This document shows, piece after piece, positions 9,092-63,524 of a stretch of 64,000 nucleotides of DNA. The stretch is taken from positions 6,003,991 to 6,067,990 of the forward strand of contig CM119271.1 in the NCBI GenBank assembly GCA_051294375.1. The letters run 5' to 3'. Each line of letters opens with the position of its first letter. Position 1 is the stretch's first letter. The notes beneath the pieces are model-generated. The model made no database searches. It worked only from the letters and a program-made list of their open reading frames with translations, and was not told the DNA's origin. The translations under genes and the position numbers were made by a program. The DNA is from Paraspadella gotoi. Its lineage: Eukaryota > Animalia > Chaetognatha.

Positions 9092-12000
9092 CTGAAACGC
9101 ATGACGGGTAAGAGGAGGAAAAATGTAATCTAAAAAATATAATTATATATAATATACTCTGGGAGTGAATAAACAAGACTGTGAGAGAGTCTTGATTGAA
9201 AAGCTTGCAGGGACCTGCTATGTCATTATCTTGTAAGAGTGATGGAGGCCTTAAAGCACCAAAGCCTGTCCAAAGTCAGGGGCAAGATGCTTATTTATTA
9301 AATGAATGGATAATTTTTGTATTGGTTGTACCAATTTCATATAAATAATATAATATAATGATGGAGGTCTTAAGCCACCAATGACTGTCCAAAGTCTGGG
9401 GCAAGATAGCTTTATGTTATTAAAATGAATCGATAATGATTATTTGGTTGTACCAATTTCATACTAAAGAAAAATACTTTAGGCTTGAACAGGTGGAACT
9501 GGTCCATTTTCTATGCATTATTGTTATTTCAAATTTTTTATGGGCGATTATCACTTAATTTCTCATTCCTAACTGGAGGCTCGTAAAAGGCAAAACCTGG
9601 ATATCGATGCTTCTAGCAAATAGAGACGAGAACGATTAATGGCCAACGAACCATGACTGACTGATATTGCTGGTGCTCAACCGTGATCTAACTGGTCAAA
9701 TTTTGAAGTCGGTGGCGTGAAAATCCCCGCAGACCTGTTTGTCGAATTCATGCATGGCTGGGGAAGATTTGGCAGAGAATGTAGTACCGGCAAATCCGAT
9801 GGGGATGCTTGCTGGAATTTACCTTTGTATAGGATTTTCGGTTTTTAAATTAAAGTTTTTTCGTTGTATTAAATCCTGCGCTTGACAGAAGAGATCCCCT
9901 TCCTGCAGTCTCCTTACACTATGGATGAGGATTTAAAGAAAAAAGTGGAGAACCCTCTGGTTTTTCTTCTGAAAAAAAACTCGCTCTTCTCATCTTCCTT
10001 ACTTTGTTCATCTTCTTATTGCAATTTTTTTATGTTTATTTTGTCACACGGACGTGAGTGTGAAGAATAAGTCTAGGGTAAAAATTTTTTTTTCGAAACT
10101 AAATAGTTGAAGAACTAACTTTGGTATAATCCTTTATGAGATACAACAGATAAATTATATAATTTGTTGACTGTTCTAATTTTTATTTTGTATTTGGCTC
10201 TTTTTGTTTAAAAAAAAAATTCTAAACCCCGCGTGGCGGATGCATTGTGTCACTTTTGAGACCCCCACACAACTCTTCAATTTTCAAAAAACATACGGAA
10301 AAGCCGGGTTTCATTCGTTCAAGGGTATGTGTATTTCTGTGGTGGTTGAGAAAAGCAATGATGCTCCATTGTGAAGTCGCATGCTTGTCAACACGTGAAA
10401 AAGAAAAAGTGAAAAAAATAAATAATCGGGGGGATAACCAAGGTGTGAATGAAAAAAGAGATTAAGTGAATTAAAAAGATACAATTGATAACGCAGACAA
10501 TGGTTCTTTTCCTCTTAACACAGAAATTTTTAGAAATTCGGATCTTGTTTAATGAAAAATTAAAAAAGGAATAGATACAAGAATGAATGGAAATGCGAAT
10601 ACAAGTGTTGATTACTCAGTGGTTGCTAATGACAAACAATTAATGCTGATTTCCAAAGAATACATGGAATCCTATGGATGGAATCTATTCTAATCATTGT
10701 TACGGCATAAAGTAAAGCTAGACTTGCCGTGTTGTGCGCAATTATCTTACGATAAATTTCCTATTAAATTGTATATATAAAAGTATACTAACATATTTAT
10801 GTAATTTTTTTGTTGTTTTAAGAAAGTATCTAACAACGTTATTTTTATGTTTGTGCCATTGAGTTATGGCTCTTCGGTCGTGATTTACTGACTTTAGTTC
10901 ATTTTTATCATTAGTTTTATGCGCGCGTATTGTTACGGAAAAGTGAGATTTTGAATCGGACTTAATAATATGATATTAAGGAAATTAGTTCTCACAAGAA
11001 GAATTTGGCCTCGCAATAGAATTTCGAATATCAATGTACTCGAGCTAATAGCAGAGAAAAAACGTTTTAGACCTTGCTTTCTTCTATTCAGGAATAAACA
11101 AGCAGACAGTCCAATACATTTCTTACATATTTCCTCCACAAGTAATACAGTCTTTACTCCTAATTCACGATTTCTGCATCGAATACTTTGATTTTCCGAA
11201 TTAGTAATTTATGTATTCATCGAAACTCCTAAAACGCAGTGGAAAAAACGTTTCTTTCGCTTTCCTCTTGTTTATTTTATTTAATACCGTTTACAACATT
11301 TGTCACTCGAGAATTACTTTCCCAAACAGAATGACTAATGTCCATTGCTAAAGATTCTCTGTTAGCAAATATAATCGTACAATTGATCCGCCAGAAAGGA
11401 AAAAAAACTTTTTCAAAGGACGCTTCGGTTGACTCGGCAAACGCAATTCGCTCTTCCTCTCCTCAGATTCAAAGAAGCGACGATCGATTTCCCTGTTCCT
11501 CGGAAATTCGTTCAGATGTACACGATTCACTTTCAATCCGAAGCTTGAATGTAACCGAGGCGTCTCTTCTTCCATCTCCTCCTATTCACATCATAACTTC
11601 CACTCTTCATCTTCCCATTTCTCTTTACGTTTTATATTCCAACCTTGTTCCACAGCCTTCCTCACTTTTCCACTCCTCATCTGCCAACCTTTTAATTTCC
11701 ACTCCTTTTCTTCCTCATTTATATTTCACTCCTATTTTTTTCTCCAAGGTATATTTCCAATTCTCATTTACTATTACTAATATATACTTTTGTAATTCCA
11801 ATCTGAGTCTTTCCACCTATCTTTTCACCCTGTACAATTCTTTTCCCATAATTTTTTTAAACATCATTACTTCCATCCTAGTCTTCCACATTTTTTATTT
11901 CAATTTCTTGATCTTTCCTCACTTTATCTTAAATTCCACTACTCCGTTTCTAATCTTTCCGCTACTAATCCTCGCAGTCCTTGCCAGTTTTGCTTCCTTT

Positions 12001-18733: not shown

Positions 18734-19556
18734 TCATTGCAACGCCGCTTCTTTTTGAGATGCGTCGCCGATTCTCCTCGACGAAGCATTGGAAAGGTTC
18801 GTTAACGAAGAAGGGACGACCGTTCGCGTCGACGCAGACGTTCCCTCATCTCCGCCGAATCCTTCCTGGCTGCAGTAGGTCATGTAGAGAAATCCGTCGT
18901 GGTCCTTTTCCTGATCGTAGATTTCGGCCAGAGTCAAGGAGAGAGTCGCCATCGAGCGTCGGTTGACGATGAAGAAAAACGCCTGTGTCTGCGAGACGGA
19001 CATCCGGCTCCGGATGATGGTGATGAATTGAGACATGGAGAGCTCCTGGGGGACGAGGAACTTGGTCTTGTCGAGTAGAGGCAGCTCCTTTTCTCGTCGG
19101 TATCGCTCGACGATGACGGGGATCTTCGTCGGGAACTTGGATCGAATGCCGTCAGTTTCTTCGCGCCGAGTCGCAAAGGACTTGCGCTGCTTGAAGGGCA
19201 GGAGGTTCTCGTGGAGGAAGCTCGGGGACTTGATGAGGGGCATCATGAAGGTCGGCATGGTGGAGGGTGGATGGCTGGGGGTGTCGGAGGAAGAGTAGGA
19301 AGAGGATAGGCTGGGGAAATAATTGAAAACTATTCATAATCTTAATTCGATGATCGAAGTTCAAATCCAATATTTCGCCCTTTATTAAAAAATATAAAAC
19401 TGCGGTATAATTGAAATTTATGTAAATTGATTAATAAAATCTAATTAAAAATTTATATAAAAAGGTAATTTATGAAACTTTCCCAATTCTACAACCTAAG
19501 AATAAAAAAAAGGAATAAAATGAAAGCTTTGCACGAATTGGTACTTACCTTTTCAT
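18734..19556 (-). CDS. MAP1LC3C: ATG8-family protein, LC3C type; main exon 18734-19310 plus probable micro first exon 19549-19556 (ATGAAAAG|gtaagt)
   Basis: PFKQRKS...KFPTKIPVIVERY...LDKTKFLVPQELSMSQF...DGFLYMTYCSQEGFG matches LC3C; upstream exon splices in frame adding MKSLSSSYSSSDTPSHPPST. Confidence 0.93.
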
Positions 19557-23807: not shown

Positions 23808-26800
23808 TTAAGCCGTCTCCAAGACGGTTGACTGCTTATGGATTGACTTGTCCTCTCCATCAGGCGACACCAAGGTGGTGGTGATATCCGCACCGGATCC
23901 CCAGCTCGAGCTGCCGCGCCAAACGACCTGGAAGGGCGGGTCGTCGACTGCGTCGGCCACGGCCGCCCAGACCTTGATCGTGCCACCGCTGGGCATGACG
24001 AAGCCCACGGGGAACCTGTAGACGAGTGCGTCGTTGTTGTCGACTTTGCGGCGGAGGGAGAATCCGTCGAGACTCTGGTCCTTGCCCTTCTTGTTCTCCA
24101 GCATGACGAAGGTGCCGTCGGGGCAGCACTCCGTGATGGCTACGGGACCCTTGGAGGATCTCTGGAAGGTCTTCTTGGAAGCCATCTCGCTCTTGGTGAC
24201 CATGACCTGTTGAGAGGCTCCGCCGGCCGAGGCCATGGCGGAGCTGGATGAGCTCTGGACCAACATGCCGCCGCCGCCGCCGCCGCCCGCCGCGGAGAGG
24301 CCGGCGCCCGCCGTCGTGTCCCTCAGGCGAGATTCTTCTCCCATCAAGAGGCGCCTGTAGGTGGCGATCTCGGCGTCAAGAGCCAACTTGCTGTCCATCA
24401 GCTCCTTCAGTTCGAGGATCTGAGCCGCTAATTGAGCCCGGAGCCGTTCGATCTCTGCCGCCTGTTGGGGATTGTGACCGATACTGGTATTTTAGTATAC
24501 ACATTAATTTATAATTGTTGATTCTGAGGTTTCTTATATATTTGTTGCCAATTTTAATTGTTATCTCATTTCTTATAGTTGACAAATATTGCTGTAGGTT
24601 CACATAAATTTTGTCGTTAAAAATGAATGTATGATTTTCCTAAAGTAATACTAAATATTTTCTTATATCCAAACACTTCTTGATTCTTCCAAATTTTGTT
24701 TAAATTCGGAATTTTATAATTTATGGTAAAAGAATAGCAATTAAAAAATGAATACAATCAAGTATTATGGCTCAAACTCGTGTACCTGATCGTCCGAGGC
24801 AGCCTCCTGATTCTTGTTGAGGAATTCCAACTCGGCCTCCAACTGCGCCACCCTCTCCAGCAACTCGGCGTTGTTGGCTCGAAGTCGCGAGATCTCCGCC
24901 TGCAGCTCCGAATATTTGGCGCGCGCGCGTTTGATCTCCTCTTTCGACTCGACGAGCTCTTGACCGGAGCGTTGAGACGTCGTCAGCATTTCGTTGAATT
25001 TCGCCTTTGAAGAGGAAAAGAGAGGAACAGGGTGAGAGAAAGAGCAGAGATACCTGGAAAAGGGAATGATAAAATGATGGGAGAGGTGCGGTTCTTAAGG
25101 GAGCTGGGATTTTTATCGTAGCTGACTGTTTGGGGACATCTTATACACTGTACAGTGTACACAAAGTAATTATTATTTTATTTTCATTTTTCTCAATTTA
25201 TCACCTAAATTTAAACGTTCAAGTTGTTTCTTATTGCTTTCATTCGTTGTCATTGGTTTTTTTTGTCTTCGCTTTCCAACATTGTTATTGCAATAAGGCA
25301 TATGCCTTTAGTTATGCATTTCCAAGCTCATTATTTGTGGACTGCAAGTCTACAGATATCTGACGCCCTTACGATTCTCCATTCCTCTCACCTTGTACCA
25401 CGAGTCCGTGTCGGCGCCCTTCTGCGACTCCAAGATAGCGTCGTATTCGGCGCGAATGTCCCTCAACGCCAAGGCCAACTCGTTGGAGAACATCGTCCTC
25501 CAGTCTTCCGAATCGAAGTTCATGTCCATCAGCTGGAAAAAGGAAGCTCGAAATTCAGCAACAAATCGGACAAAAAATCCAAACACGCTCATTCTTCGAT
25601 CTACTTTTCCGAAAGCGCCCCAATTCAGCCAAAATTTTTAATTAGGGGGTTTAAGGTTTAGTATTAGAAGATAAGGATTAGAATTAATGATTAGGTTTTG
25701 ATATTAAAGATTAAGTTAGCGTTAAAAATGAGTTTAAACATATTATTAAAAAATATTAGGGTGAAGAGACAGTAATTATTGTTATGTGTTAGTGATAGAA
25801 CCGTTCAATATAAGCAGTCCCTGAGCTTTGGATCAGGCTGTAACACCATGTTACAGGCGGGTTAAGCGCCCCGTCCCTCTTAACTGCCAGACGACCATCG
25901 GGCTAGAACCCCGGACCTTGGGGTTGGGAGGCGAATGACTTGCCTCCGGCACCAATGGCCGCTGATGAACAGTTGGTGGATTTTAGTTCACCATACATCC
26001 CCCCCCCGTAGGGAGAAGTCTGTTACATCTCTTCAGTGAATTGTTGTTGTTGGTGGAAAGTTCGTCACCAAGTTGAGGCATATCGCCTGATGTGTTGTGG
26101 GCGGAAAGTGCATCGCCAGGTTAAGGCATGTCGCCTGAAAGTGTTGTTGTTGCTGTTGTGTTCGGAAGTCGGGCTTACCAATGAAGAAACAGTAATTATT
26201 GTTATGTGTTAGCGATAGAACCGTTCAATATAAGCAGTCTCTGAGCTTCGGATCAGGCTGTAACACCATGTTACAGGCGGGTTAAGCGCCCCGTCCCTCT
26301 TAACTGCCAGACGACCATCGGGCTAGAACCCCGGACCTTGGGGTTGGGAGGCGAATGACTTGCCTCCGGCACCAATGGCCGCTGATGAACGGTTGGTGGA
26401 TTTTAGTCCACCATAAGGGTTAATTTTTAGATTTAAAATTAGGTTCAGGTATTACGAACAGAAATGAGCGCTTTCGGAAAATAGAGCCCATTCTCCCTCA
26501 CCTGACGAATCTTCTCCTCGTACATGTTCCTGAGAAAGTTAATCTCATCGTCTTTGGTCTGCACCATGGATTCGAGCTCGATGCGCGCCACGATCTCGGC
26601 GTCGGCCGCAGTCTTCGAGTCGCGGAGGTCGCGTTGGCTGCGCGCCAAGTCTCCCTTTGCGCGCGCGCACTCTCGCTCCAACGCGTCCACGGTTTTGGTG
26701 AGGTATTCGATCTGGGCATCGCGTTCCGAGATTCCCTTTTCTAAGGCAGGGAGGCGTTCCTGTGGTTTGGTTGTTTTTCGGTCTTTGTTTATTTTTAAAA

Positions 26801-29092: not shown

Positions 29093-29123
<31 letters not shown>

Positions 29124-31338
29124 TTGGGAGAGATTAAATTGGTCACGGTAAACATGGCTGGATTGGTTGGGTTAAAAAAAAAATAGATGTAGAAATAAAA
29201 AAACGTGAGTCGTAGTTTTTCAGAGTAATCATTGAAGAAAGGACCTTAGCTTATATTTGAATTGCTTTCATCCTTTGCTTGCCGTAAAAAAAAATTAGGA
29301 ATGTTATTCTTAAAGTTTTATTTCTATTAATGTAAAATAAATAAAATAAAATAAAATCAATAAATAAAATAAATAAAACGGATTCTATTTTAAATCTGAG
29401 GTGTAATCTCTCTCTGTTTTTCTAACACTCTCTTTCTCTCTCTCTCTCTTTGACTGCCTGGTTGACCCAGACGAAACTATGAGGGTTCGTCGTCAACATT
29501 AATTAAAATAATCCGGCGCCGTTGTTGTTGCTGTTGTCGTTGTTGTTTTCTCGTCCTCGTCGTTTATCAAAAAAATTCGTTGATCTTCGCCGTCGAGTCA
29601 TCGTCGATCGTTAAAACTGAAAAGACGACAGATTTTAGTTTTTTTGTTCTTCATTTTTTAAATCCTTTCTTATTCATCTCTCCCTCTCTCTCTCTCTCTC
29701 TCCCCCTCTCTTCCTCTCTCCCTTCATCTCTTCATAGTGCCGTATTTCTTTAAAGAACGTTTTTATCATTTATCTTTAGACTTTACTTGACGTGTCTTTA
29801 ATTTTCTCTCTCTCAAAAAAAAAAATCCTTAAACCAAACATTCTATACATACATTTCTTTCTCCTTTCTTTTTAAATCCAGCCTCCTCCTTTAAACGTGA
29901 AAAAACGTCCTCTCCATCGAAGGGATGGCATCACCCTCAGAAAAATGTCGCAAATTGGATGGCAAATTGGATGGCATCACTCTCAGAAAAATGTCACAAA
30001 TTAAAACGAGTTTACTGATTCTAACATCTCTGTGTCTTTTACTTCTTTTTTTAATTTTTTAAGTCTTTTACAGTATAAATCTAAGTTTTGAAGAGACAGT
30101 AATTATTGTTATATGTTAGTGACAGTCCCTGAGCTTCGGATCAGCCTGTAACACCGTGTTACAGGCCTGTTAGGCGCCCCGTCCCTCTTAACTGCGGGCT
30201 AGAACCCTGGACCTTTGTGTTGTGTTGACGAATGATTTGCCTCCGGCACCAATGGCCACTGATGAACGGTTAGTGGATTTTAGTCCACCAGTTTCTTGAA
30301 ATTCTGCATGATGCATTTTACAACAAAATTCTTTCAAGAGTTTTTTTATTTTTTCTTTTTGTTGCAAAAAATAAAACAAAAAAGAAAATGAACTGAACTT
30401 CGTCTCTTTAATAACTGCTCACAATGTATGGTTTTCCAAGGTTATATTTTCTTAGTCAGTTAAAAGGTTTTCCAAAATATTATTTAAAAAAAATGAAACA
30501 AACCAGAAACTCAGTCTTAACTTTTTTTTTTCACTGTAGAACAAAGAATTTCATTGTGAATCGTCATTCGAAAAATTCGTGAGTCTAAATTGAAAAGGAA
30601 GTGAAATCCGGAGGATGAGAAGAAAACGCCCGAATCTTCTTTGTACAGGCGATTCAAAAAAAAAGAGTGAAAGGATACATAAAATGCATATTGCATACTG
30701 CAAATAATACACAGATAATGCCAATATGGCGCCCGAGAAAGCGGTGGATCTCACTTGTTGACGTTACAGATCAATGATATTAACTGTCGCGGTTTAACAC
30801 GCACTGTCACGCTTCGCCAACAAAGCCGGAGACCTCCGGGAATAAACCCGGAACTCTCAAATAGTGGGTTAGACTACCGGTTTGTGGCGATTCCGTGGCC
30901 AATGGAAAAAGTCATTTTCCCTCCCATGACTGTTGAGCATGTCAAGGTGGCCAGCTCGCCGTGATTATAAACTGTTATTTAACTATGTAAAAAATGCATC
31001 ATGTTGATTTCGTCGATTGCTCTCTGAATCGCCGGATCGGTCTACAGTCGGCATGCTGACTTCCTTCAGATGCCCTTGCCGCTCGGAGGTCAGACCGACG
31101 CTTTCGAAAAGGGCGTCGCGAAAATTGAGCTGTTGTATGTCATAAAAAAATTGACTTGTATGTAAGAATATTGAATTTTTTAAAAAAACTTTTATTTGTC
31201 TTTTTTTTAACGTTTTCGACTTTGAAGGAATAAAAATGTTTGGTTCGGTTTTTTGATCGCGCGCGATCGCTCGCATTGAGAACGATGAGCGAAGTGAGAG
31301 AAGAATACGAGAGAGAGATAGACAAGAGAGAGATTTAA

Positions 31339-31371
<33 letters not shown>

Positions 31372-33095
31372 GAGAGCAGAGAGAGATCGGTGAGCGGTCT
31401 TAAACGAGGCCTACCATTTTTACGTAGCCTCAGGCAAAAATTCATCATCGCTGTATCATTACATTTTCCCCTCCTCCTCATTCTCCTCCATCTTGGCTAC
31501 CAAAACCTTTTTTTCTTGTTTTTGTGTAATTTTGTATTTTTGTTTTTTTTATTTTTTTGAGGAGAAAATTATTTTTTGTACCAACACCGATTTCATAATC
31601 TAATTTTTTTGAGGCCCGGTAAACGGCGATTCATGGGCTCCTACCGCCGTCCCGCCCCAAATCCTACAGGGTGTATTCAAAGTGTTACCAAAAGTATGAA
31701 TAGTGAAAAGTACGTATTTTCTGAAAAAAAACTTTTTTTCTTAACTATGTAATGATAAAAAGAAATATCCTCTTCAAATAACTTTTCTGAGAAATATAAA
31801 TTAAATTATTCCATCAAACATATATTGAATTAAATTAAAATTATTTCAATTTCATTTATAGTTTTTTTTTATTCAATTTTTATTCAAGCCTATGTGTACA
31901 AAATGTACAAATGTGTGCACATACACATAGTTTCTCTGACTCACGTCTCAAATTAAATGTCTTAAATTGTCTCACTCCCCTTCCTTAGAAATCAACTCTA
32001 TCTCTCCCTCACTTCTCCCTNNNNNNNNNNTTTATTCAAGCCTATGTGTACAAACTGTACAAATGAGTACACATAGCTTCTCTGACTCACGTCTCAAATT
32101 AAATGTCTTATATTGTTTCACTCCCTTTCCCTAGAAATCAAATCTATCTCTCCCTCTCTTCTCCCTCTTTCCTTTATCCTCGTTCTCAGATAACGGAAAC
32201 AGATAAACTCGAATTATTCCCCTGAGTTCGATTGTAAAAAATCGTAATCTGAAATAATAAAGNNNNNNNNNNNNNNNNNNNNNNNNNCAAAACTGAAACA
32301 ACGCTTTTGTCCATCAAGGCAATAAATGTTTCTTGTTGATAGTGAAGTTCATTTCTTTCTTTTAATTCTGCTTTATTATTTCAGATTACGATTTTTTACA
32401 ATCGAACTCAAGGGAATAATTCGAGTTTATCTGTTTCCGTTATCTGAGAACGAGGATAAAGGAAAGAGGGAGAAGTGAGGGAGAGATAGAGTTGATTTTC
32501 TAAGGAAGGGGAGTGAGACAATTTAAGACATTTAATTTGAGACGTGAGTCAGAGACAACTATGTGTAACACATTTGTACATTTGTACACATAGGCTTGAA
32601 TAAAAAAAATAAAGATAAATGAAATTGAAATAATTTTAATTTAATTAATTCAATATATGTTTGATGAAATGTTTAATTTATATTTCTCAGAAAAGTTTTA
32701 TCGACTACTGAGTATTCTTAAGTACATATTTAAGTGACAAAGAAGTTTTTTTTCAGAAAAATAACGTACTTTTCCAATTCATACTTTTTGTAACACTTTG
32801 AATACACCCTGTAGGATTTGGGGTGGGACGGCGGTAGGAGCCCATGAATCGCCGTTTACCGGGCCTCAAAAAAATTAGATTATGAAATCGGTGTTGGTAC
32901 AAAAAATAATTTTTCTCCTCAAAAAAATAAAAAAAAAAAAAATACAAAATTACACAAAAACAAGAAAAAAAGGTTTTGGTAGCCAAGATGGAGGAGACAT
33001 GAGGAGGAGGGGAAAATGTAATGATACAGCGATGATGAATTTTTGCCTGAGGCTACGTAAAAATGGTAGTGCCTCGTTTAAGACCGCTCACCGAT

Positions 33096-33165
<70 letters not shown>

Positions 33166-35111
33166 ATCTCTCTCTCACTTCCTCATCCGTTCTCCAATGC
33201 GAATTCAATGCGAGCGATCGCGCGGCGATCAAAAAAACCGAACCAAACATTTTTATTCCTTCAAAGTCGAAAGTTAAAAAAAAGACAAATAAAAGTAAAA
33301 AATTCAATATTCTAACATACAAGTCAATTTTTTTATGACATACAACAGCTCAATTTTCGCGACGCCCTTTTCGAAAGCGTCGGTCTGACTCCGAGCGGCA
33401 AGGGCATCTGAAGGAAGTCAGCATGCCGACTGTAGACCGATCCGGCGATTCAGAGAGCAATCGACGAAATCTACAACATGTACTAATGCAAATTTTTTAC
33501 ATATTTAAAATAATAGTTTATAATCACGGCGAGCTGGCCATCTTGACATGCTCAACAGTCATGGGAGGGAAAATGACTTTTTCCATTGGCCACAGAATCG
33601 CCACAAACCGGTAGTCTAACCCACTATTTGAAAGAGTTCCGGGTTTATTCCCGAGAGGTCTCCCGCTTTGTTGGCCAAGCCTGACAGTGCGTGTTAACCG
33701 CGACAGTTAATATCATTGATCTGTAACGTCAACAAGTGAGATCCACGCTTTCTCGGGCGCCATATTGGCATTATCTGTGTATTCTTTGCAGTATGCAATA
33801 TGCATTTTATGTATCCTTTCACTCTTTTTTTGAATCGCCTGTTACAAAGAAGATTCGGGCGTTTTCTTCTCATCCTCCGGATTTCACTTCGTTTTCAATT
33901 TAGACTCACGAATTTTTTCGAAATGACGATTCACAATGAAATTCTTTGTTCTACAGTGAAAAAAAAAGCTTAAGACTGAGTTTCTGGTTTGTTTCATTTT
34001 TTTAAATTAATATTTTGGAAAACCTTTTTAAACTGACTAAGAAAATATAACCTTGGAAAACCATACATTGTGGCAGTTATTAAAGAGACGAAGTTCAGTT
34101 CATTTTCTTTTTTGTTTATTTTTTGCTTTGAAAGAATTTTGTTGTAAAACGCATTATGCAGAATTTTAAGAAACTTTAGATTAGATACTGTAAAAGACTT
34201 AAAAGATAAAAAAAGAAGTAAAAGACACAGAGATGTTAGAATCAGTAAACTCGTTTTAATTTGCGACATTTTTCTGAGAGTATCATAATTGCATCCATTC
34301 ACATTCGAATGAGAGAGAGGACATTTTTTCACGTTTAAAGGAGGAGGCTGGATTTAAAAAGAAAGGAGAAAGAAATGTATGTATAGGAATGTTTGGTTTA
34401 AGGATTTTTTTTTTTGAGAGAGAGAGAAGATTGAAAGACACGTCAAGTAAAGTCTAAAGATAAATGATAAAAGCGTTCTTTAAAGAAATACGGCACTTTG
34501 AAGAGATGCAGGGAGAGAGAGAAGAGAGGGGGTAGAGAGGGAGAGAGCAGCAGAGAACAGAAGAGATGAATAAGACAGGATTTAAAAAAATCCGTCGTCT
34601 TTTTCAGCTTTAACGATCGACGATGACTCGACGAGCGAAAGATCAACGAATTTTTTTGATAAACGACGAGGACGAGAAAACAACAACGACAACAGCAACA
34701 ACACGGCGCCGGATTATTTTAATTAATGTTGACGACGAACCCTCATAGTTTCGTCTGGATCAACCAGGCAGTCAAAGAGAGAGAGAGAGAAAAAGAGAGT
34801 GTTAGAAAAACAGAGGAGATTACACCTCAGATTTAAAATAGAATCCGTTTTATTTATTTTATTATTGATTTTTATTTTATTTTATTTATTTTACATTAAT
34901 AGAAATAAAACTTTAAGAATAACATTACTACTACTATTTTTTTTTTACGCAAGCAAGGATGAAGCAATTCAAGATATAAGCTAAGGTCCTTTCTTCAATG
35001 ATTACTCTGAAAAACTACGACTCACGTTTTTTTATTTCTACATCTATTTTTTTTTTAACCGGGCAGCACCAATCCAGCCATGTTTACCGTGACCAATTTA
35101 ATCTCTCCCAA

Positions 35112-35140
<29 letters not shown>
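29093..35140. repeat. Inverted duplication with ~3 kb arms centred on the gaps at 32021-32287
   Basis: atgcttgggagagattaaattggtcacgg at ~29120 is the reverse complement of ~35085-35115, and homology continues to the centre; arms differ by substitutions and indels. Confidence 0.95.
30089..30290 (-). mobile_element. Solo LTR of the 25762 family with degenerate twister (30123-30195)
   Basis: TGAAGAGACAG...TAGTCCACCA flanked by GTTT on both sides; absent from the other arm (empty site at 34171-34174). Confidence 0.9.
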
Positions 35141-35155
<15 letters not shown>

Positions 35156-38919: not shown

Positions 38920-40135
38920 TTTATGTTTCATATTTATCGTGCCGTCGACAGGTTTAGTTATTGCCCCCAAAAATCATTATGTATGTAACTCTCTTATGTT
39001 TCCCTGCTGTTTTTATAGCAAAAAGGTTTTCGAACCTTCGCGTAAAACGCACAAATTCAGAAATGCAGCGCCCGCGTAATCGACAAATTAAGAGAAATTT
39101 TAAATCGTTACAAAAAATTTTAAAAACTAATATTTTCAAGTATCCTAAAATTGTCAATGCGACGAGGGATATTGCTACCCAGATATGAAACGCCATTCGA
39201 TTCTTGAATATGTTTCATATTTATCGTGCCGTCGACAGGTTTAGTTATTGCCCAAAAAAATTTATTATGTATGTAACTCTCTTTATGTTCCCTTGCTGTT
39301 TTTATAGCAAAAAGGTTTTCGAACCTCGCATAAAACGCACAAATTCAGAAATGCAGCACCCGCCGGAATCGAACGATTAAAAGAGATTTTAAATTGTTTC
39401 AAAAAATTTTAAAAACTAATATTTCAAGTATCCTAAAATTGTCAATGCGACAAGGGATATTGCTACCCAGATATGAAACGCCATTCCGATTCTTGAATAT
39501 GTTTCATATTTATCGTGCCGTCGACAGGTTTAGTTATTGTCCAAAAAATTCATTATGTATGTAACTCTCTTATGTTTCCTTGCTGTTTTTATAGCAAAAA
39601 GGTTTTCGAACCTTCGCGTAAAACGCACAAATTCAAAAGCAGCGCCGCGGAATCGACGAATTAAAAGAGATTTTAAATTGTTTCAAAAAATTTTAAAAAC
39701 TAATATTTTCAAGTATCCTAAAATTGTCAATGCGACGAGTGATAGTGCTACCCAGATATGAACGGCATTCGCTACCTGAGGTGCTTATAACCATTTCCAT
39801 TCTTGAATATGTTTCATATTTATCGTGCCGTTGACAGGTTTGTTATTGCCCAGAAAAGTTCATATGTATGAATTGGTACAACCAATATAAAAATTATATG
39901 TATGTAACTCTCTTATGTTTCACGGCTGTTTTTAAAGCAAAAGGTTTTTGAACCTTCGCGTAATCGACGAATCGACGAATCAATAGAAATTTGAAATCGT
40001 TTTAAAAAATGTAAAAAAACTAATATTTACAAGTATCCTAAAATTGTCAATGCGACGAGTGATATTGCTACCCAGATATGAAACGACATTCGCCGCCTTG
40101 AGGTGCTTTTAAAACCATTTCCAGATTCTTGAATT
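38920..40135. repeat. ~290 bp tandem repeat, about 4 units
   Basis: tatgtttcatatttatcgtgccgtcgacaggtttagttattg recurs every ~290 bp. Confidence 0.93.
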
Positions 40136-40857: not shown

Positions 40858-42660
40858 TCAATTGGTGTTGAGCATAAGACACACCCTTGCAGGATCCAAT
40901 GGCTGGAGTGTTCGGTCTAAAGAGGTCGGCTTCGAAAACGAGACCGACTCCCATAGCGTTTCGTCGGTCGGAAGTGGTGTAGACCGGAGTACGAAGAGTG
41001 TTCTGTAGGAAAAGAGAAAATGAGTACCTTTGTTATATTCTGATTAACTCTACTTAGTACTTAATACAAGGGAAATACTTTTTTTTTGACTGTTCGGTAT
41101 TTGATAAGATAAGATATGCGTTTTTTTTCGTTCACAACAAATTTTTTGAAAAAGAACATTCAATATTCCATTACACACACAAAAAATAATTGCATTAATT
41201 GATTTTTTTACAATTCAAAACAATGTAAATAATAAAATTAACGAAGCATAGGTAACCCCAGCCCCCCCAAAAAAATTGAGTTAACTACGTATAATCAGCT
41301 AAATGACTAAATTTTATAACGCAATTTAATTTAGTACAACTGAAACATCGTCACAATTCTCACCTTCTTCTCACTTTTATTATTACTATTTTCGTCTTCT
41401 ACACCACTTCAGAGATAGGGAGGCCAAGTACTCTGGGAGTGAATACACGAGACTGTGAGAGAGTCTCGATTGAAAGCTTGCAGTATCCTGCTATGTTATT
41501 ATTCTGTAAGAGTGATGTCCGAAGTCACGGAAAATATTTATAGAAGATTTATTGAATGAATGAATAATTTTATATTTCAATTTCATAATAAGAAATACAT
41601 GAGTCTTCCATTTTTAAATATCATAAGTCGGAAAATCATATGTCATATATCATATGTCACTTTGCTGTCATTTGACTATAAAATAATATAATAAATATAT
41701 TAAATAATCAATCGTGCGCATCAGAGACCTTTTATATGTATTATTATGTTGTGTCATTGAATCTTTCATTGAAATGGCTAAATTTAGTATTCTTCAAATA
41801 AGAATTTAAAATTTTTTTATCTTAATTTTATTCAAAATCCGTGCAAAACAAAGCACCTGCAATTTGAGACGATGACTTCGATCGGAATGACTCTTGAGGA
41901 TGGGCAGCTCCTTTATCAGCTCCTTGGGTAGGGATCTCTCCAACCCCCCAATCGCGTAGTTCCATCCTGCGCCTTCCAAGTAGAGTCCGCGACGTATGAC
42001 CTAATAGAAAAAATATGAGTGTGATTAATCGCTTAAAGATTCTCGTAAAAGGGCTGAAATAAGGAATAAGGTTTTTTCAAAATAATTTAGAAAAAACATG
42101 TCGTTATTATTGTTTCAAATAAATCGTTGTTGAATTCATTTCAAACTTTTCTCTTAAATCTCAACCGCAACGAAACGAAGGATTATAATGTCTACAAAAT
42201 AATTATTCTGAACGGAGTCATTTAAAGTGTTTACAATTTTAAAGAAGGGACATGTTTTTAAGAAAAAAAATTGTTCAGTAAAAAAGTAACATTAATCCAA
42301 ACGCAGTATTTTACACAAATATGCAAATGAGATTTAGGGGACATAAGTGAGGCTGATGTTATAACATTATGATAAGACTGTGGAGTACGATGTTATGTAA
42401 AGTTGTGTGAGAGTTAGCAGGGGACGAGCGCCGTGTGATAGATCGCACGTCAAAATTTCACGAGTACCCGAGCTGGCGATCGTTCTTGAATCTCATCCGC
42501 CGTCGAGAACTGCGGTCCGGAAGTGGTACAGTCCGTCGACTGTGGAGAGCGCAATCCGGTCGTCGACGAGTCATGCTGTGGAGGGTGATGGGGGAGGGTT
42601 GCGCGAAGCGCTGTCTCGGAGACGCAGGCTCGTGTGCTGTGGAGCGCGTGCGTAATCCGA
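40858..42660 (-). pseudogene. DNAH10: Duplicate of the last three DNAH10 exons (probably redundant assembly)
   Basis: Contains [22 protein letters not shown] and GLYLEGAGW-type sequence with frameshifts; 42466-42660 is highly degraded. Confidence 0.6.
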
Positions 42661-43768: not shown

Positions 43769-44996
43769 TATGTTTCATATTTATCGTGCCGTCGACAGGT
43801 TTAGTTATTGCCCCCAAAAATTCATTATGTATGTAACTCTCTTATGTTTCCCTGCTGTTTTTATAGCAAAAAGGTTTTCGAACCTTCGCGTAAAACGCAC
43901 AAATTCAGAAATGCAGCGCCCGCGTAATCGACAAATTAAGAGAGATTTTAAATCGTTACAAAAAATTTTAAAAACTAATATTTTCAAGTATCCTAAAATT
44001 GTCAATGCGACGAGGGATATTGCTACCCAGATATGAAACGCCATTCTGGATTCTTGAATATGTTTCATATTTATCGTGCCGTCGACAGGTTTAGTTATTG
44101 CCCAAAAAAATTTATTATGTATGTAACTCTCTTATGTTTCCCTGCTGTTTTTATAGCAAAAAGGTTTTCGAACCTTCGCATAAAACGCACAAATTCAGAA
44201 ATGCAGCACCCGCGGAATCGACGAATTAAAAGAGATTTTAAATTGTTTCAAAAAATTTTAAAAACTAATATTTTCAAGTATCCTAAAATTGTCAATGCGA
44301 CAAGGGATATTGCTACCCAGATATGAAACGCCATTCCGGATTCTTGAATATGTTTCATATTTATCGTGCCGTCGACAGGTTTAGTTATTGTCCAAAAAAA
44401 TTCATTATGTATGTAACTCTCTTATGTTTCCTTGCTGTTTTTATAGCAAAAAGGTTTTCGAACCTTCGCGTAAAACGCACAAATTCAGAAATGCAGCGCC
44501 CGCGGAATCGACGAATTAAAAGAGATTTTAAATTGTTTCAAAAAATTTTAAAAACTAATATTTTCAAGTATCCTAAAATTGTCAATGCGACGAGTGATAG
44601 TGCTACCCAGATATGAAACGGCATTCGCTACCTTGAGGTGCTTTTAAAACCATTTCCTGATTCTTGAATATGTTTCATATTTATCGTGCCGTTGACAGGT
44701 TTAGTTATTGCCCAGAAAAGTTCATTATGTATGAAATTGGTACAACCAATATAAAAATTATATGTATGTAACTCTCTTATGTTTCACGGCTGTTTTTAAA
44801 GCAAAAGGTTTTTGAACCTTCGCGTAATCGACGAATCGACGAATCAATAGAAATTTGAAATCGTTTTAAAAAATGTAAAAAACTAATATTTACAAGTATC
44901 CTAAAATTGTCAATGCGACGAGTGATATTGCTACCCAGATATGAAACGACATTCGCCGCCTTGAGGTGCTTTTAAAACCATTTCCAGATTCTTGAA
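43769..44996. repeat. ~290 bp tandem repeat, about 4 units (second copy)
   Basis: Same unit; ORF track shows near-identical peptides at a 290 bp period. Confidence 0.93.
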
Positions 44997-45721: not shown

Positions 45722-48700
45722 TCAATTGGTGTTGAGCATAAGACACACCCCTTGCAGGATCCAATGGCTGGAGTGTTCGGTCGTAAAGAGGTCGGCTTCG
45801 AAAACGAGACCGACTCCCATAGCGTTTCGTCGGTCGGAAGTGGTGTAGACCGGAGTACGAAGAGTGTTCTTAGGAAAAGAGAAAATGAGTACCTTTGTTA
45901 TATTCTGATTAACTCTACTTAGTACTTAATACAAGGGAAATACTTTTTTTTTTGACTGTTCGGATATTTGATAAGATAAGATATGCGTTTTTTTCGTTCA
46001 CAACAAATTTTTGAAAAAGAACATTCAATATTCCATTCACACACACAAAAATAATTGCATTAATTGATTTTTTTACAATTGAAAACAATGTAAATAATAA
46101 ATTAAAGAAGCATAGGTAACCCCAGCCCCCCCAAAAAAAATTGAGTTAACTACGTACAATCAGCTAAATGACTAAATTTTTATAACGCAATATAATTTAG
46201 TACAACTGAAACATTCCTTGAAAAATTATACTACTTCAGAGATAGGGAGGCCAGGTACTCTGGGAGTGAATACACGAGACTGTGAGAGAGTCTCGATTGA
46301 AAGCTTGCAGTATCCTGCTATGTTATTATCTTGTAATAGTGATGTCCGAAGTCACGGAAAATATTTATAGAAGATTTATTGAATGAATGAATAATTTTAT
46401 ATTTCAATTTCATAATAAGAAATACATGAGTCTTCAATTTTTAAATATCATAAGTCGGAAAAATCATATGTCATATATCATATGTCACTTTGCTGTCATT
46501 TGACTAATAAAATAATATAATATAATAATATAATAATCAAGTCGTGCAATCAGAGACCTTTCTATATGTATTATTATGTTGTGTCATTGAATCCTTTCAT
46601 TGAAATGGCTAAATTTAGTATTCTTTCAAATAAGAATTTAAAATATTTTTTTATCTTAATTTGATTCAAATCCGTGCAAACAAAGCACCTGCAATTTGAG
46701 ACGATGACTCTCGATCGGAATGACTTTGAGGATGGGCAGCTCCTTTATCAGCTCCTTGGGTAGGGATCTCTCCAACCCCCCAATCGCGTAGTTCCATCCT
46801 GCGCCTTCCAAGTAGAGTCCGCGGACGTATGAACCTAATAGAAAAAAATATGAGTGTGATAAATTCGCTTAAAGATTCTCGTAAAAAAGGGCTGAAATAA
46901 GGAATAAGGTTTTTCAAAATAATTTAGAAAAAACATGTCCGTTATTATTGTTTCAAATAAATCGTTGTTGAATTCATTTCAAACTTTTCTCTAAATCTCA
47001 ACCGCAACGAAACGAAAGGATTATAATGTCTACAAAATAATTAGATTCGAACGGAGTCATTTAAAGTGTTTACAATTTTAAAGAACGGGACATGTTTTTA
47101 AGAAAAAAAATTGTTCAGTAAAAAAGTAACATTAATCCAAACGCAGTATTTTACACAAATATGCAAATGAGATTTAGGAACTTATAACATTATAACATTA
47201 TGTAACTTATTACATTATGTAAATTCTTTAATTAAGACTAGGAGAGCGCGCTATAATCCGTCAAAATTGTCACGTACCCGAGTGCGATCGTTCTTGAATC
47301 TCATCCGCCGATCGAAACTGCGTCACGGAAGTGTACAGCGTCGACTTGTCGAGAGGCCAACCGTTTCGTCGACACGTCGCTTGCACCAACGCTGTCAGGA
47401 ACGACTCTGGGATGTGGAGGCCGGAAAGCCAGATGACCGCCGGTTCGCCTTCGATCACCTAGAAGGAACGAGACGGGATTTTCTCTCTCTCTCTGTTTCG
47501 CTGAAGTTTAAATAAACGAGTTGCGTCCACACGAGCCCCTTATCAAATTTTTTACCTCATCGAGTTAAGGGATCAATAAACCCTTACAGCAACAAGACTA
47601 CTTTTCGACAGCACATTTTTTTCCCTTCAGTTCCATTAGTTTAATATATTTGACCTTTAAAGAGTTCTGAACATTAGGCTTTTCTTCCTAATTTTTTTCT
47701 TTTAAATTTTCAATATTTCTTTAATGTTTAATAAGTGGAAGGAGTGAAATGGGGTGGGCCTTAAAAATATTAATAAAAGCAGCATGAGTGTTGACGGTTT
47801 TTTCCTTAAAGTTTCCCCAGAAACAATTTTTTTAGGTTTTCCATTATCAGTTACTACAGTATAAATTTCTTTTAAATTGCTCGTACCACTCTTAAATTTT
47901 TATTCGTCAAACAAAAGAGGTAAGTTTAATAATAACGCTGTCTTTGGTCTTTAAGTTTTAAAATTTATTAAAGATTTTTGAATGATTAAATTTTACAGCA
48001 TCATTTGCAGCATCAGCAGCATTTACAGCATCATAGTTGATCGGCTCACATTGATACAAAATAATTAAACTACTTCATGATAATTTGAAACCGACCGCAA
48101 AAAGAAAAATGGTCACAATTTTTTTTCAAAATAGTCCTGCGATATTATTCCCTTTCTTCCAAAACTAGAGTAAACTAAACATAATGACATAATAAGAAGT
48201 CACGATATGTATATTAAGGTGGATCGAGTAAGGAGTTAAGGTTTACCTCTCGGTTATTTCGTTACTAGTCATGGACGAGAATGAAAATATAAAACTGTGG
48301 CGAATCCTAAATTCGACTCCCGTATAGCTTGGTGAAACTCAGCTCGTCCCTTTGGCTTGGACAGCTAAGTAGTAAGTACTCATTCACCAACCGTGAGTTC
48401 CGGGTTCGATCCCCTCACGGTCACGCTGGTTAAAGTGTGATGGTGTCGGCATAAACACGCCAGAGATATGGTGAGGTCACTGCAGGTCCAAAGCCCTGAG
48501 TGCCAGCTGTTGGGAGATGCCTGACACCCCAGGCATCATACATGTCCCTCCGTTGCCATAAAACTAACTTTTTATAACTATTACACACATTAGGCATTTT
48601 TAACTATATGCAAATTATAATATGCAAATGAGATTAAGATACATAATTTAATTTAATTAATTTAATTCGATTTTTTTTCTTTCTCCTCTTTATGTTCCTC

Positions 48701-60064: not shown

Positions 60065-62450
60065 TGCTGATCTCCACTTCGTTCGTCAAGAGGTCCTCCA
60101 CCCTGAAGGGGTGCGACAAAGGTATCGCTCTTTCCTTTGCGTCGTTCTCCCATTCTTCCCTGAGGAGGGAGTGGCGATACTCCCAGGAGAACGCCCCGAG
60201 GTAAGATAGGAATCCGGCGCAGAGAAGGCAGTCGCCTAGAAGGCGAATGCGCATCGAGCGTAATTCGGCAAGGTCTACTTTCCATCTGAAGAGGAAGTGG
60301 AAAACAATAGGCTAACGTGGGGATTATATTTTAATGTATATTAACTTCCACATTGTTTCTTTCGTGTTTTGTGATTTTTATTTTTATAAGTCAACAAATT
60401 TAACAGTCTCAACTTATTTTTTGCCCAAATTATTTACATTCGTTTTCTATAGTTTAATTTATCTCAATGCTTCATCGCACTTTTAAATAAATACAAATAC
60501 AAATATTTGTTAATGTATTCTCTCTTTATTAACCATTTTTCACCACCGGGCGCCTTCCGAACTACAGACCCCGATTCAGCTTTCCGCGGCGATGGCGCGA
60601 CGCTCCATTAGGTCGGCCTCTCCTGGAGCTTATCCGCCTCCAGCATTGGCGTTCGTACTTTTCGCCCAACAGCCCTCAGCTGCTCTTCGATTTTGTATCG
60701 TTTCTTAGCGTCAACGATAATAGAAAATAATAAGAAAACTTAAAAATATCCGATATGGTTTGCAGATTTTTCGTACTTATAATGGTGAAAATAAAGGGCG
60801 AACCCGAAAACAAACTACATACGTATTCAAAAGAACAGAAAATTTAACGATACTGTCAATAACTTACTACAATATGCAAATGAGCATGACGACCTTAGTT
60901 AAGCTCATTCTGACATTAAACCCAAAATCGCTTGCAATATATAACCGAGAAGACCTCATTTGCTTTTACAAGTCTTCTGAATTTGTAAAATGCTCTTGAC
61001 AACAAAAACAACAAAGAAAGAAAAAAAAACTAACCGGCGATGACTTTGTCAAGATCTTTTTCTTGTTTTGCGCGGAAAGTTTTCTCCAGCGCGGCCACCT
61101 TCATCTTCTATCGGCTGACCTCCTTGTAGACGGCGCACAGTTATCCATCACCGCCACCACGAACGAGCAGTCCTCCGCCGGCTTTCGAGATGACCGTCAC
61201 TTCCTCCACGGTATGGCTAAGCCCATCGAAGTCGATTTGATTTTGAGATCGTCGAGAGAAGGACGAGATTGGCTGGGAAATCATTCAATAAACTTATTTT
61301 TTGAGAATAAGTTTAAGTTATAAGGAATGACCCTTTTAAAGCGTTGTACTTCAATGACCGACAGAGTTTAGACGGCATATTTGTTTTCTAGGAGCCTCAC
61401 TTTCAGCCTCGTTAGCATAATATTTCTTATTTTATAAAAAACTAGGATTTGTGTTTCGACTTTCTTTTCGTTGCGTTTAAATTTTTCAATAAAAATCGTT
61501 GTTTCTTACAAAAAAACGAGGATGAAAACAATTTTTTTACTTTCATAACAAAAATGAAAGATAAGCATAAAAAGCGTCTCTTCGTATAACAGCTTGTATA
61601 ACATTATATAACATGTATAACATTATCAATGCGCATTTAAATATAAGTGGGAAAGACAGACTGATAAAGTGATAAAGCGACAGCAAACTAAATAGACCAA
61701 ACGCATTTTTGAGCGAGTTAGCCGTTTAAGTAACCAAGTATGATATAACCAATCCCACTAAAAATACTAGGAAATTAATATCACTTTTAACAGTCTTTTG
61801 TTGAGCCTGAGTAATCGCGTCGCAGTCCATCTCCTTCAATTCCTTCAAAAAATTTACGTCCGCCATGAGACCCTTCGCCGATTTCCAGGAAATGTCTTTT
61901 AAACTAGAAATTTATGAGAGAAGAGTAATGAGTAATACTCATTAGTCATTAGTCAGTTAGTATATGAGACAGAGAGAGAGAGAGAGAGGCAGTAAAAAAA
62001 AACATTCAGATACCGAAGATCGATTTCAACTACTAATAATCCACGCCTTACCCCAATTCCCTCCCACTCACTCACCCTTTCAACGCGACCACGCATTCGC
62101 AGACTTTCTCCACGGCCTTGGGCGGCTTCGCGAAACTCCGGATCTCCGTGATGTCGGACTTTTCGAGATTGTCCAGCGCCCGCGCCGCCTCCTCCAGCGC
62201 CGGAAGCGCCTCCGCCAGTGCCTCCTCCGCGTCCGCCTGACAAGAGACTCGAATGATCGAAAGACGACGACGATCACAACGGAACACTTCCCCTTCGCCC
62301 CATCCCTCTCTCTCACCTTCTCGACGTTGATCTCCCTGGAAAAGACGATGATCTCTCTCTCCTTTTGATTCGCGGCCGCCTTCTTCTCCGTGGCTATTTT
62401 GGTCCCCGCCACGATCTCGCCCAGCAGCAGTTCGCAAGCCTTCGATTTTT
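45722..62450 (-). CDS. DNAH10: Axonemal inner-arm dynein heavy chain 10, 3' portion (stalk, AAA5, AAA6, C-terminus; about 28 exons); 5' part lies beyond the window
   Basis: [65 protein letters not shown]...[57 protein letters not shown], terminal [13 protein letters not shown]...HWILQG; some exons (~60545-60700, ~46690-46835, last exon) have indels likely due to sequence error. Confidence 0.93.
48296..48560 (+). mobile_element. Solo 265-bp LTR-like unit with tRNA head and twister ribozyme
   Basis: Imperfect inverted termini TGTGGCGA...TTGCCATA, flanking AAAC duplication (could be read as ATAAAAC), A-box-like CAGCTAAGTAG 48362-48372, B box GGTTCGATCCC 48403-48413. Confidence 0.85.
48425..48507 (+). 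ncRNA. Twister ribozyme, type P5
   Basis: GCUGGU UAAA GUGU GA UGG UGUCGGCA UAA ACAC GC C[P3]G CAGG UCCAAAGC CCUG AGU GCCAGC: P5, P2, P4, T1 (UGG/CCA) and T2 (GC/GC) all pair; predicted cut 48452/48453. Confidence 0.85.
51312..52588 (+). CDS. Nested Ly6/uPAR three-finger (quiver-like) protein, 4 coding exons (51312-51428, 51552-51614, 52017-52134, 52455-52588), 143 aa
   Basis: Signal peptide [22 protein letters not shown], 10 cysteines from MKCW to [12 protein letters not shown], hydrophobic GPI-type tail; all junctions GT-AG and in phase. Confidence 0.85.
55362..55462 (+). mobile_element. Helentron/DINE-1-like non-autonomous element 3' end
   Basis: gacagac repeats, aaagtgacttatag, palindrome agttgctccgcgagtactcgcggcgcaact, poly-A. 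Confidence 0.55.
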
Positions 62451-63099
62451 CTGACCGAGACAAACGTCGTTGTCATTCTTATCAATAAATGTTTAGTACT
62501 TTTTTTTTTATCACTAAGATTTTTCGAAGATTTTTTACGTATATCGTACATATATATATATCGTTTACAAGATTCTAAATGATTTCAATAAAGATGAGTA
62601 ATGCTCTCCAGCATGGTTGAAAACAAAAAGATGTGGCACAGCTTAAAGCTGCTCAGCTGGCTGTCCGTCCCTCAGGCCCTCGTCTCAATGGTGAGCAGGC
62701 TAAATCTATTATATCCGATCCTGCGTTGCGTCGGTTAAATCCCTGGGTATTCGCGTTCTGGCTTAAATGTGACGGTGCGGTATGGAAATGCAGTGACAGG
62801 AGCGGTGCAGGTAGGGTCCGCAGCCCTACGCCAGTGGTGAGATACGGCCTGGCCCACGCGGTATCACAGGCTATCCTCCCGTTGCCCATAATATAATATA
62901 TATATATCGTTTACAAGATTCTAAATGATTTCAATAAAAGATGAGTAATCTCTACCAGATGGTTGGAAAACAAAGAGTGTGGCAGCAAGACTAAAGCTGC
63001 CTCACTGCTGTCCGTCCTCAGCTCGTCTCAATGCGTAGCAGGCCTAAATCATCTCATTCCATCCGTGCGTCCCGGGTTCAATCCCTGGTATCCCGGTTT

Positions 63100-63180
63100 C
63101 TGGCTTAAATGTGACGGTGCCGGTATAAACATGCCAGTGACAGGAGGCGGTTCACTGAGGGTCCGCAGCCCCTACGCCAG
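63100..63180 (+). ncRNA. Twister ribozyme, type P5 (array unit 2)
   Basis: CUGGC UUAA AUGU GA CGG UGCCGGUA UAA ACAU GC C[P3]G AGGG UCCGCAGC CCCU AC GCCAG; predicted cut 63126/63127. Confidence 0.85.
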
Positions 63181-63443
63181 TTGGTGAGATACCCCGCGCC
63201 CCGGTATCACAGGCTATCCTCCGTTGCCATAATATTATATATATATATCGTTTACCAGATTCTAAATGATTTCAATAATAAGACGAGTAATCTCTACCAG
63301 ATGGTTGGAAAACAAAAGAGTGTGGCAGCAAGACTTAAAGCTGCCTACTGCTGTCCGTCCTCAGCCTCGTCTCAATGGCTGAGCAGGCTAAATCATCTCA
63401 TTCCATCCGTGCGTCCGGGTTCAATCCCCGGGTATCCCGTGTT

Positions 63444-63524
63444 CTGGCTTAAATGTGACGGTGCCGGTAATAAACATGCCAGTGACAGGAGGCGGTCACT
63501 GAGGGTCCGCAGCCCCTACGCCAG
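63444..63524 (+). ncRNA. Twister ribozyme, type P5 (array unit 3)
   Basis: As unit 2 with perfect P3 CAGUGAC/GUCACUG and one extra A next to P1; units 1 (62758-62834) and 4 (~63810-63892) are noisier. Confidence 0.75.

Follow-up and report, generated by a model that had tools for sequence, protein, structure and literature searches.

A tRNA-derived head and a twister ribozyme fold side by side in the LTRs of a Helenus-type TRIM of the chaetognath Paraspadella gotoi

The animal TRIMs described as Helenus or TRIMp3 (Kojima 2024) carry tRNA-derived sequence in their LTRs and produce 4-bp TSDs (PMC10886601). The use of Pol III by these elements was inferred in that paper without validation. The word "twister" is absent from its main text, in which "ribozyme" occurs in one reference title only. 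A Pol III promoter taken from a small-RNA gene is also present in the LTRs of the Cassandra and Ajax TRIMs, where it is 5S-derived and where the same source reports no ribozyme (PMC10886601). Plant LTR retrozymes, on the other hand, are non-coding elements with a ribozyme in both LTRs, a primer-binding site (PBS), a polypurine tract (PPT), a 4-bp TSD and a Gypsy helper (Cervera et al. 2016, PMC4918200; PMC7761336). Their ribozyme is a type III hammerhead, their PBS corresponds to tRNA-Met and their monomer measures 600-1000 nt; they are described in these sources without a promoter (PMC4918200; PMC7761336), but an LTR promoter has been reported for a retrozyme of N. benthamiana (PMC9695139).

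The retrozymes of animals have been described without LTR, PBS and PPT, and retrozymes in general without a promoter of their own (PMC7229834; PMC7761336). In the SINE-like repeats of Schistosoma a Pol III promoter is followed by a hammerhead, and after cleavage this promoter forms the 3' part of the RNA (PMC6765202; PMC7229834), and tandem copies supply the promoter to each other (PMC6765202). Retrozymes and ribozyme-bearing repeats are further treated in bioRxiv 10.1101/2022.07.19.500677. As for twisters, the T-variants of Perere-3 are linked to a retroelement, but they are found in a LINE, at its 5' end, and not in LTRs (Liu et al. 2021, PMC8501958).

The stretch of P. gotoi DNA analysed here (64 kb, hereafter the window) comes from a noisy assembly. 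It includes ATG8, a dynein exon and an intermediate-filament gene that encodes a lamin-tail domain. In a protein atlas placement, the product of the intermediate-filament gene groups with lamin/intermediate-filament clusters from chordates and nematodes. The reading frame of this gene is uninterrupted once an intron of 969 nt (25533-26501, minus strand, GT-AG) is taken out, and within this intron lies a complete TRIM of 654 bp (25762-26415, minus strand), designated F1, which is oriented in the sense of its host gene.

Read along the minus strand, F1 consists of a TSD CCCT (26416-26419), the 5' LTR (26182-26415, 234 bp, TA...CA, without the leading TG that is present in the 3' LTR), a PBS (26168-26180), a short internal part, a PPT of the form G9A (25998-26007) immediately 5' of the 3' LTR, the 3' LTR (25762-25997, TG...CA) and the second TSD CCCT (25758-25761). 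The two direct repeats, 234 nt each and 420 nt apart, differ at 6 positions (97% identity). The PBS agrees at 11 of 12 positions with that of CsRn1-clade elements for tRNA-Trp and is the sole site of this type in the window. Elements of the CsRn1 clade also produce 4-bp TSDs (PMC2582038), and both the PBS and the TSD of F1 are of CsRn1 type. No ORF of 150 or more amino acids was found in F1. As an element of less than about 1 kb with two LTRs, no protein, PBS, PPT, a 4-bp TSD and tRNA-derived LTR sequence, F1 agrees with the definition of Helenus, and Gypsy-type PBSs, including those for tRNA-Trp, are also found in Helenus (PMC10886601). The feature that sets F1 apart from the Helenus elements of that paper is the twister fold after the head.

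A solo F1 LTR (30089-30290, minus strand; TSD AAAC) is decayed by two deletions and has a broken P2. An inverted duplication provides the paralogous site, near 34170 in its second arm; this site is empty, carrying a single AAAC with no insert, which confirms the insertion. The window therefore records at least two transpositions of the F1 TRIM, and decay is seen in two of the three F1 copies.

The original prediction placed a tRNA-derived Pol III promoter at 26311-26382, and the minus strand of this segment is tRNA-like indeed. The head of the 5' LTR extends over 26312-26381 (tRNA position 1 at 26381), and that of the 3' LTR over 25892-25961. In both, 18 of the 20 tRNA positions taken as invariant or semi-invariant are present at canonical spacing; the next-best site among about 128,000 positions in the window reaches 16, and 18 is reached by the two LTR copies only. 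The misses are A14 (C), the one mismatch of the A box (26363-26374, tRNA positions 8-19), and R57 (T), the one mismatch of the B box GGTTCTAGCCC (26320-26330). Of the motifs typical of Helenus, GGTTC is present in the B box, and TRGCY and YGG of the A box are matched at 3 of 5 and 2 of 3 positions, respectively. ARAGORN called no tRNA in the window. The D and anticodon stems are lost (1 of 4 and 2 of 5 pairs), and since the boxes and their spacing have been retained, the pattern is that expected of a promoter and not of a tRNA. An acceptor-like stem of F1 pairs at all 7 positions if the T arm is taken as 2 nt shorter (predicted pairing probability 1.0), yet it is not kept in the solo LTR or in the F2 and F3 families described below, with at most 5 of 7 pairs in any register tried. 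A glycine origin of the head was considered on account of the CCC at the anticodon position and rejected, as this triplet is merely what is read out there and does not fix the parent tRNA.

When the distance between the boxes was left free at 41-50 nt, 8 sites with at most two mismatches were found in the window, and 7 of them immediately precede a twister fold. The boxes are imperfect, with the two substitutions in F1 and two mismatches in the A box of F2. Taken together, the sequence evidence supports a tRNA-derived head located in the LTR immediately before a twister fold. The novelty implied for such a head in an LTR, however, is not upheld, because tRNA-derived LTR sequence is the defining trait of Helenus (PMC10886601), a group which the original prediction did not cite.

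At the 5' end of the LTR there is a hairpin of 7 bp with a CTAAAA loop (26394-26413, minus strand). Its energy amounts to -10.4 kcal/mol in the 5' LTR and -5.2 kcal/mol in the 3' LTR of F1, and the corresponding values are -3.8 kcal/mol in F2 and about -12 kcal/mol in F3. The regions upstream of the heads align no better than shuffled sequences (116-495 of 1000), and the distance from TAAA to the A box varies (31, 40 and 54 nt); hence the hairpin does not emerge as a conserved part of the promoter. The variable spacing also rules out its reading as a TATA element at fixed distance. The order of elements claimed for all three subfamilies therefore stands in part: head followed by twister is found in F1, F2 and F3, but the TAAA hairpin preceding them is unequal.

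The segment that follows the head of the 5' LTR can be folded as a type-P5 twister (26233-26308, minus strand) with a predicted cut at the U-A bond 26284/26283 and a P1 segment at 26285-26290. P2, P4, P5, the two pseudoknots, the UAA/GA cleavage loop and the L4 motif were all found, P2 being 3 bp with a bulge. The twister of the 3' LTR (~25813-25888) has a C-A mismatch at one of its pseudoknot pairs (25829), and P2 is gone from the solo LTR. According to PMC11662667, P1 is dispensable in natural twisters, bulges in stems are tolerated and C-A is relatively tolerated in the longer pseudoknot. F1 shares with the type-P5 twister of Rfam (RF02684) P2, P4, both pseudoknots, the UAA and GA elements and the P5 permutation; it differs in that P1 is cut down to a self-complementary stretch of 6-8 nt, P3 is present and the score remains under the threshold. 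Indeed, no twister (RF02684) was detected in the window at the gathering score, and with E values up to 5 F1 was still missed, the only match being F4 (Twister-P5, 25.8 of the 37.6 bits). Hammerheads were matched neither at gathering nor at E up to 5. A hammerhead reading of the CTGATGA on the plus strand of F1 was rejected by eye, as it is not followed by GAAA.

A descriptor that demanded P5, P2, both pseudoknots, P4, GA and NAA, and that was written after these copies had been seen, found 5 matches in the window and 3 in 300 block-shuffled windows (0.01 expected per window). In an alignment of 9 copies, which represent about three lineages only, the two pseudoknots together with P4 comprise 80 cells, of which 78 are paired, and double, compensatory changes occur in 6 of the 9 pairs, across both pseudoknots and P4; when the partners are slid out of register, pairing falls to 18-50%. 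Descriptor and alignment were made from the same copies, so these scores are biased in favour of the fold. The model built from the 9 copies has 12 matches in the window (3 in F1, 1 in F2, 4 in F3 and 4 in F4), 9 of which are the training copies, and a tRNA head precedes 8 of the 12. Exact degenerate twister patterns gave no match in metagenome or viral contigs, collections which are mostly microbial. In a nested-fold model, which leaves the pseudoknots uncounted, a rival hairpin masks a pseudoknot strand with a probability of 0.73-0.77, the probability of P2 is 0, and the twister-compatible fold lies 10 kcal/mol above the minimum. By descriptor and alignment, the twister is a real fold, and self-cleavage by it is predicted.

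P1 of F1 is a self-complementary stretch of 6 nt (6-8 nt across the families) that forms no hairpin by itself. It is fully self-complementary in F1, F2, F3b and F4 and not so in two noisy F3 copies. Some hammerheads cut as dimers (PMC7229834), and the palindromic P1 may recall them by analogy, but P1 is dispensable in twisters and the likeness is taken as a lead only. Within the folded precursor the P1-P1 dimer has a probability of 0, and the two LTRs pair via P3 instead (0.91).

Three further families with twister folds occur in the window. F2 (48296-48558, plus strand) is a single TG...CA unit flanked by TAAAAC direct repeats, which give a TSD of 4-6 bp according to the end chosen; its B box, at 48403, is perfect, and its twister occupies 48425-48507. 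F3 (62550-64000, plus strand) is a tandem array of about four 343-bp units that continues beyond the window, in each of which head and twister are accompanied by a (TA)n spacer and by a purine tract. The B boxes announced at 48403 in F2 and at 63418 in F3 were found in their places, and in F3c both the B box and the 12-nt A box are perfect. The array, which is antisense to the adjacent dynein exon, starts inside its spacer, and the spacer contains no TGG-type PBS, hence F3 is not counted as an LTR element here; its layout rather resembles the promoter-ribozyme repeats of Schistosoma (PMC6765202). F4 (1770-1834 and 9226-9289) is a twister family without a tRNA head.

The twister of F4 is close to that of F1, with a related P2 region and an alignment score between the two that beats 1000 of 1000 shuffles. 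F2 and F3 align over head, twister and tail and, as judged from this alignment, are clearly sisters. The similarity of F1 to them is confined to head and twister; their tails and upstream parts are unalignable with F1, and the order of head and then twister is repeated in F2 and F3. Among F1-F3, a two-LTR element with a PBS is demonstrated for F1 only. The earlier view, in which one LTR element has three subfamilies, is thus supported in part: two are sister families, and the third is similar to them in head and twister.

The preferred reading of F1, to which about an even chance is given, is that of a Helenus-type mini LTR retrotransposon that likely acts as a self-promoted LTR retrozyme of animals, with a start by Pol III, a 420-nt monomer cut out by the twisters and a circular intermediate. 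Pol III would start near 26381 in the head of the 5' LTR and proceed through the element. Cuts at 26284/26283 and 25864/25863 would drop a head fragment of 98 nt and free the 420-nt monomer, made up of U5, PBS, internal part, PPT and, from the 3' LTR, the head with what lies upstream of it. As the head of the 3' LTR is inside the monomer, the promoter would travel along. The proposal that the released RNA obtains its promoter from the next repeat is thus borne out geometrically, and such an arrangement is known from the hammerhead elements of Schistosoma (PMC6765202). That the twister trims the precursor is, by contrast, an incomplete description: with cuts in both LTRs the monomer has no terminal repeat, ordinary strand transfer fails, and reverse transcription needs a circle or partial cutting. 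As has been proposed for hammerhead retrozymes, whose closure by tRNA ligase was shown in vitro (PMC7229834), a circular monomer may be reverse transcribed beyond a single round. The primer at the PBS would be tRNA-Trp, and reverse transcriptase and integrase would be provided in trans by a CsRn1-like Gypsy element.

In agreement with transcription through the whole element, a search for T-run terminators suggested by the original prediction revealed no T4 in 620 nt of the F1 sense strand, the first T6 being situated 8 nt beyond the element. Such a T4-free stretch is found in 13 of 292 window tiles, but 43% of composition-matched shuffles are equally T4-free, for which reason the absence of T4 was rejected as strong evidence and the outcome of this check has to be considered weak. 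After the B box, T4 is lacking in F1, F2 and F3b and present in one noisy F3 unit.

The set of LTRs, PBS, PPT and TSD, the boxes at tRNA spacing, the covarying twister, the position of seven of the eight best A and B box sites before a twister, the repetition of the head-twister order in F2 and F3 and, by eye, a hammerhead in the same slot of two wasp Helenus, described below, are all counted for the retrozyme reading. Counted against it are the scores below the Rfam threshold, the competing hairpin, the C-A mismatch in the pseudoknot of the 3' LTR, the A14C and R57T substitutions, and the departures from TRGCY and YGG, motifs that most Helenus have kept. The circular 420-nt monomer, moreover, is only 53% paired, and with F1 in sense orientation in an intron, Pol II could provide the precursor.

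The last of these points leads to a different account, in which the head is a relic, the precursor derives from Pol II read-through (here of the host intron) and the monomer is excised by the twisters. The two non-consensus box bases of F1, its sense orientation in a spliced intron, the existence of headless F4 twisters and the read-through proposed for promoter-less retrozymes (PMC7761336) all agree with it. Yet box positions and spacing have been retained despite the loss of the tRNA stems, F2 and F3c have perfect B boxes, the latter with a perfect A box as well, and F3 is antisense to the dynein exon; the relic account is regarded as distinctly unlikely. Somewhat less so, though still improbable, is a scheme in which no circle is needed: the twister would serve as a leaky 3'-end maker in place of a T-run terminator, and those RNAs that start in the 5' head, pass the first site uncut and are cleaved at the second would be linear, with the 98-nt head as terminal repeat for normal strand transfer. 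The frequent misfolding predicted for the F1 twister would make for partial cutting, and in many published animal Helenus LTRs, inspected by eye, the head is shortly followed by a T-rich tract (PMC10886601), T4 being absent from this place in F1, F2 and F3b. Against this, the ribozymes of the two LTRs are near-identical, which would leave kinetic selectivity only and cap the yield at ~1/4 of transcripts, and the pseudoknot mismatch sits in the 3' copy, the very one that would have to cut. Fish Helenus in the same source, moreover, also appear by eye to have no obvious T run, and yet they have no ribozyme.

It is quite improbable, too, that F1 is an ordinary Helenus TRIM with an acquired twister module (for instance from a Penelope-like tail) as an inactive or neutral passenger. 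Such a passenger would fit the scores under the Rfam thresholds, the decay of two of the three F1 copies, the headless F4 of related P2 region in the same window and the fact that most published Helenus are without a ribozyme (PMC10886601). However, the compensatory changes in both pseudoknots and P4 point to selection for the fold, part of which may predate the capture, and an apparent hammerhead occupies the same slot in two Helenus of gall wasps. Least probable by far is the retention of the head as a tRNA-like structure for processing by RNase P/Z and not as a promoter: the complete acceptor-like stem of F1, with its predicted probability of 1.0, would suit it, but the T arm lacks 2 nt and the stem is not kept in the solo LTR, F2 and F3.

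The wasp elements in question, Helenus-2_SyJa and Helenus-2_SyUm, have in their LTRs, after the B box, what by eye is an apparent type III hammerhead, unremarked in the main text of PMC10886601. Its parts are GUC, a 7-bp helix I, CUGAUGA, a 4-bp helix II, GAAA and a 6-bp helix III, together with a 12-bp loop-loop pairing, likewise recognised by eye. The PBS of both elements is assigned to tRNA-Trp and agrees with that of F1 at 12 of 14 positions. None of six twister loop 8-mers was found in any LTR of the supplement of that paper, in which line breaks and variants could mask some. A broader proposal, tentative and rather doubtful, would be that a recurrent class of Trp-primed LTR-retrozyme TRIMs with their own promoters has gone unrecognised in animals. 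Its members would combine a tRNA-type Pol III promoter with an exchangeable ribozyme (a twister here, a hammerhead in the gall-wasp Helenus-2) and replicate via circular RNA, and their twisters with palindromic P1 would cut as dimers, so that cleavage awaits transcription of the second LTR.

Returning to the retrozyme reading of F1, the element is predicted to work like an LTR retrozyme but is not filed as one. It has in common with the plant LTR retrozymes the motif of a self-cleaving ribozyme in each LTR and a monomer expected to span from one cut site to the next, and differs from them in being animal and in its twister, Trp-type PBS, monomer of 420 nt and internal boxes of tRNA type. The repeats of Schistosoma and the metazoan non-LTR retrozymes have a hammerhead and are without LTR, PBS and PPT (PMC6765202; PMC7229834), whereas in F1 the LTR pair restores the two-copy layout at each insertion. 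From tRNA-derived SINEs, with the head at the 5' end, a LINE-type tail and neither LTR nor PBS, F1 is distinguished by its LTRs, PBS, PPT and internal head. Helenus had already shown that animal LTRs can contain a tRNA head, the SINEs of Schistosoma that a Pol III head can be joined to a hammerhead, and plant retrozymes that LTRs can carry a ribozyme; the combination of a tRNA head and a twister in an animal LTR element appears to be new, and its function is predicted. In the literature searched, which is largely open access, no twister in an LTR element and no ribozyme in Helenus was found, and Repbase notes or the supplements of twister surveys could hold such cases.

If cleavage fails, F1 is an ordinary new family of Helenus. 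If F1 is active, it would join the Helenus and retrozyme types, give the twister a defined job in the replication cycle of an LTR element and show a Pol III transcript that keeps its promoter through a step of cutting and circularisation, and it would be a small source of circular RNA in animals. It is also suggested that ribozymes may have been overlooked in the catalogued consensus sequences of TRIMs.

In addition to the three families with tRNA-derived heads (F1-F3), the window harbours a fourth twister family (F4), represented by copies at 1700-2005 and 9155-9463 and by decayed copies near 41429-41600 and 46256-46420. The copies in the window lack the tRNA head; they contain a 119-bp partial tandem repeat, a palindromic P1 helix segment and an AT-rich tail, and the family is possibly a remnant of a Penelope/Naiad-type tail. 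Tandem repeats of 288-290 bp occupy 38922-39770 and 43769-44626, and a 32-nt F4-tail fragment also lies, reversed, within these repeats (44761-44730, 39897-39867). The interior of the F1 TRIM (26045-26147) consists mostly of a 48-bp unit in about two copies; its linkers are rich in CAA, and its sense strand forms small hairpins.

Two large direct duplications, 465-7909/7911-15554 (93%) and 37875-41348/42711-46214 (97%), contain many indels and may both be uncollapsed haplotypes from a noisy long-read assembly. The arms of an inverted duplication (29093-32020 and 32467-35142, 90-94% identical) are distinguished by the insertion of the solo LTR, a decayed F1 copy; they represent either a genuine inverted repeat or a pair of haplotypes joined by the assembly. 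As for host genes, an unbroken ATG8/LC3 reading frame lies at 18734-19333 (minus strand), and a dynein heavy-chain exon (62072-62480, minus strand) is adjoined in antisense by the F3 twister array (62550-64000, plus strand).

Outside the window, by-eye reading of the PMC10886601 supplement revealed, immediately 3' of the tRNA head in Helenus-2_SyJa-LTR and Helenus-2_SyUm-LTR, what looks like a type III hammerhead in which a 12-bp pairing links the loops. The paper gives both elements a tRNA-Trp PBS and does not comment on the apparent hammerhead.

In all four twister families of the window, P1 is self-complementary and leaves no space for a loop (26290-26285 in the F1 5' LTR, 30178-30173 in the solo LTR, 48444-48451 in F2, 63118-63125 in F3 and 1790-1795 in F4), which hints that cleavage may involve two copies acting as a dimer.
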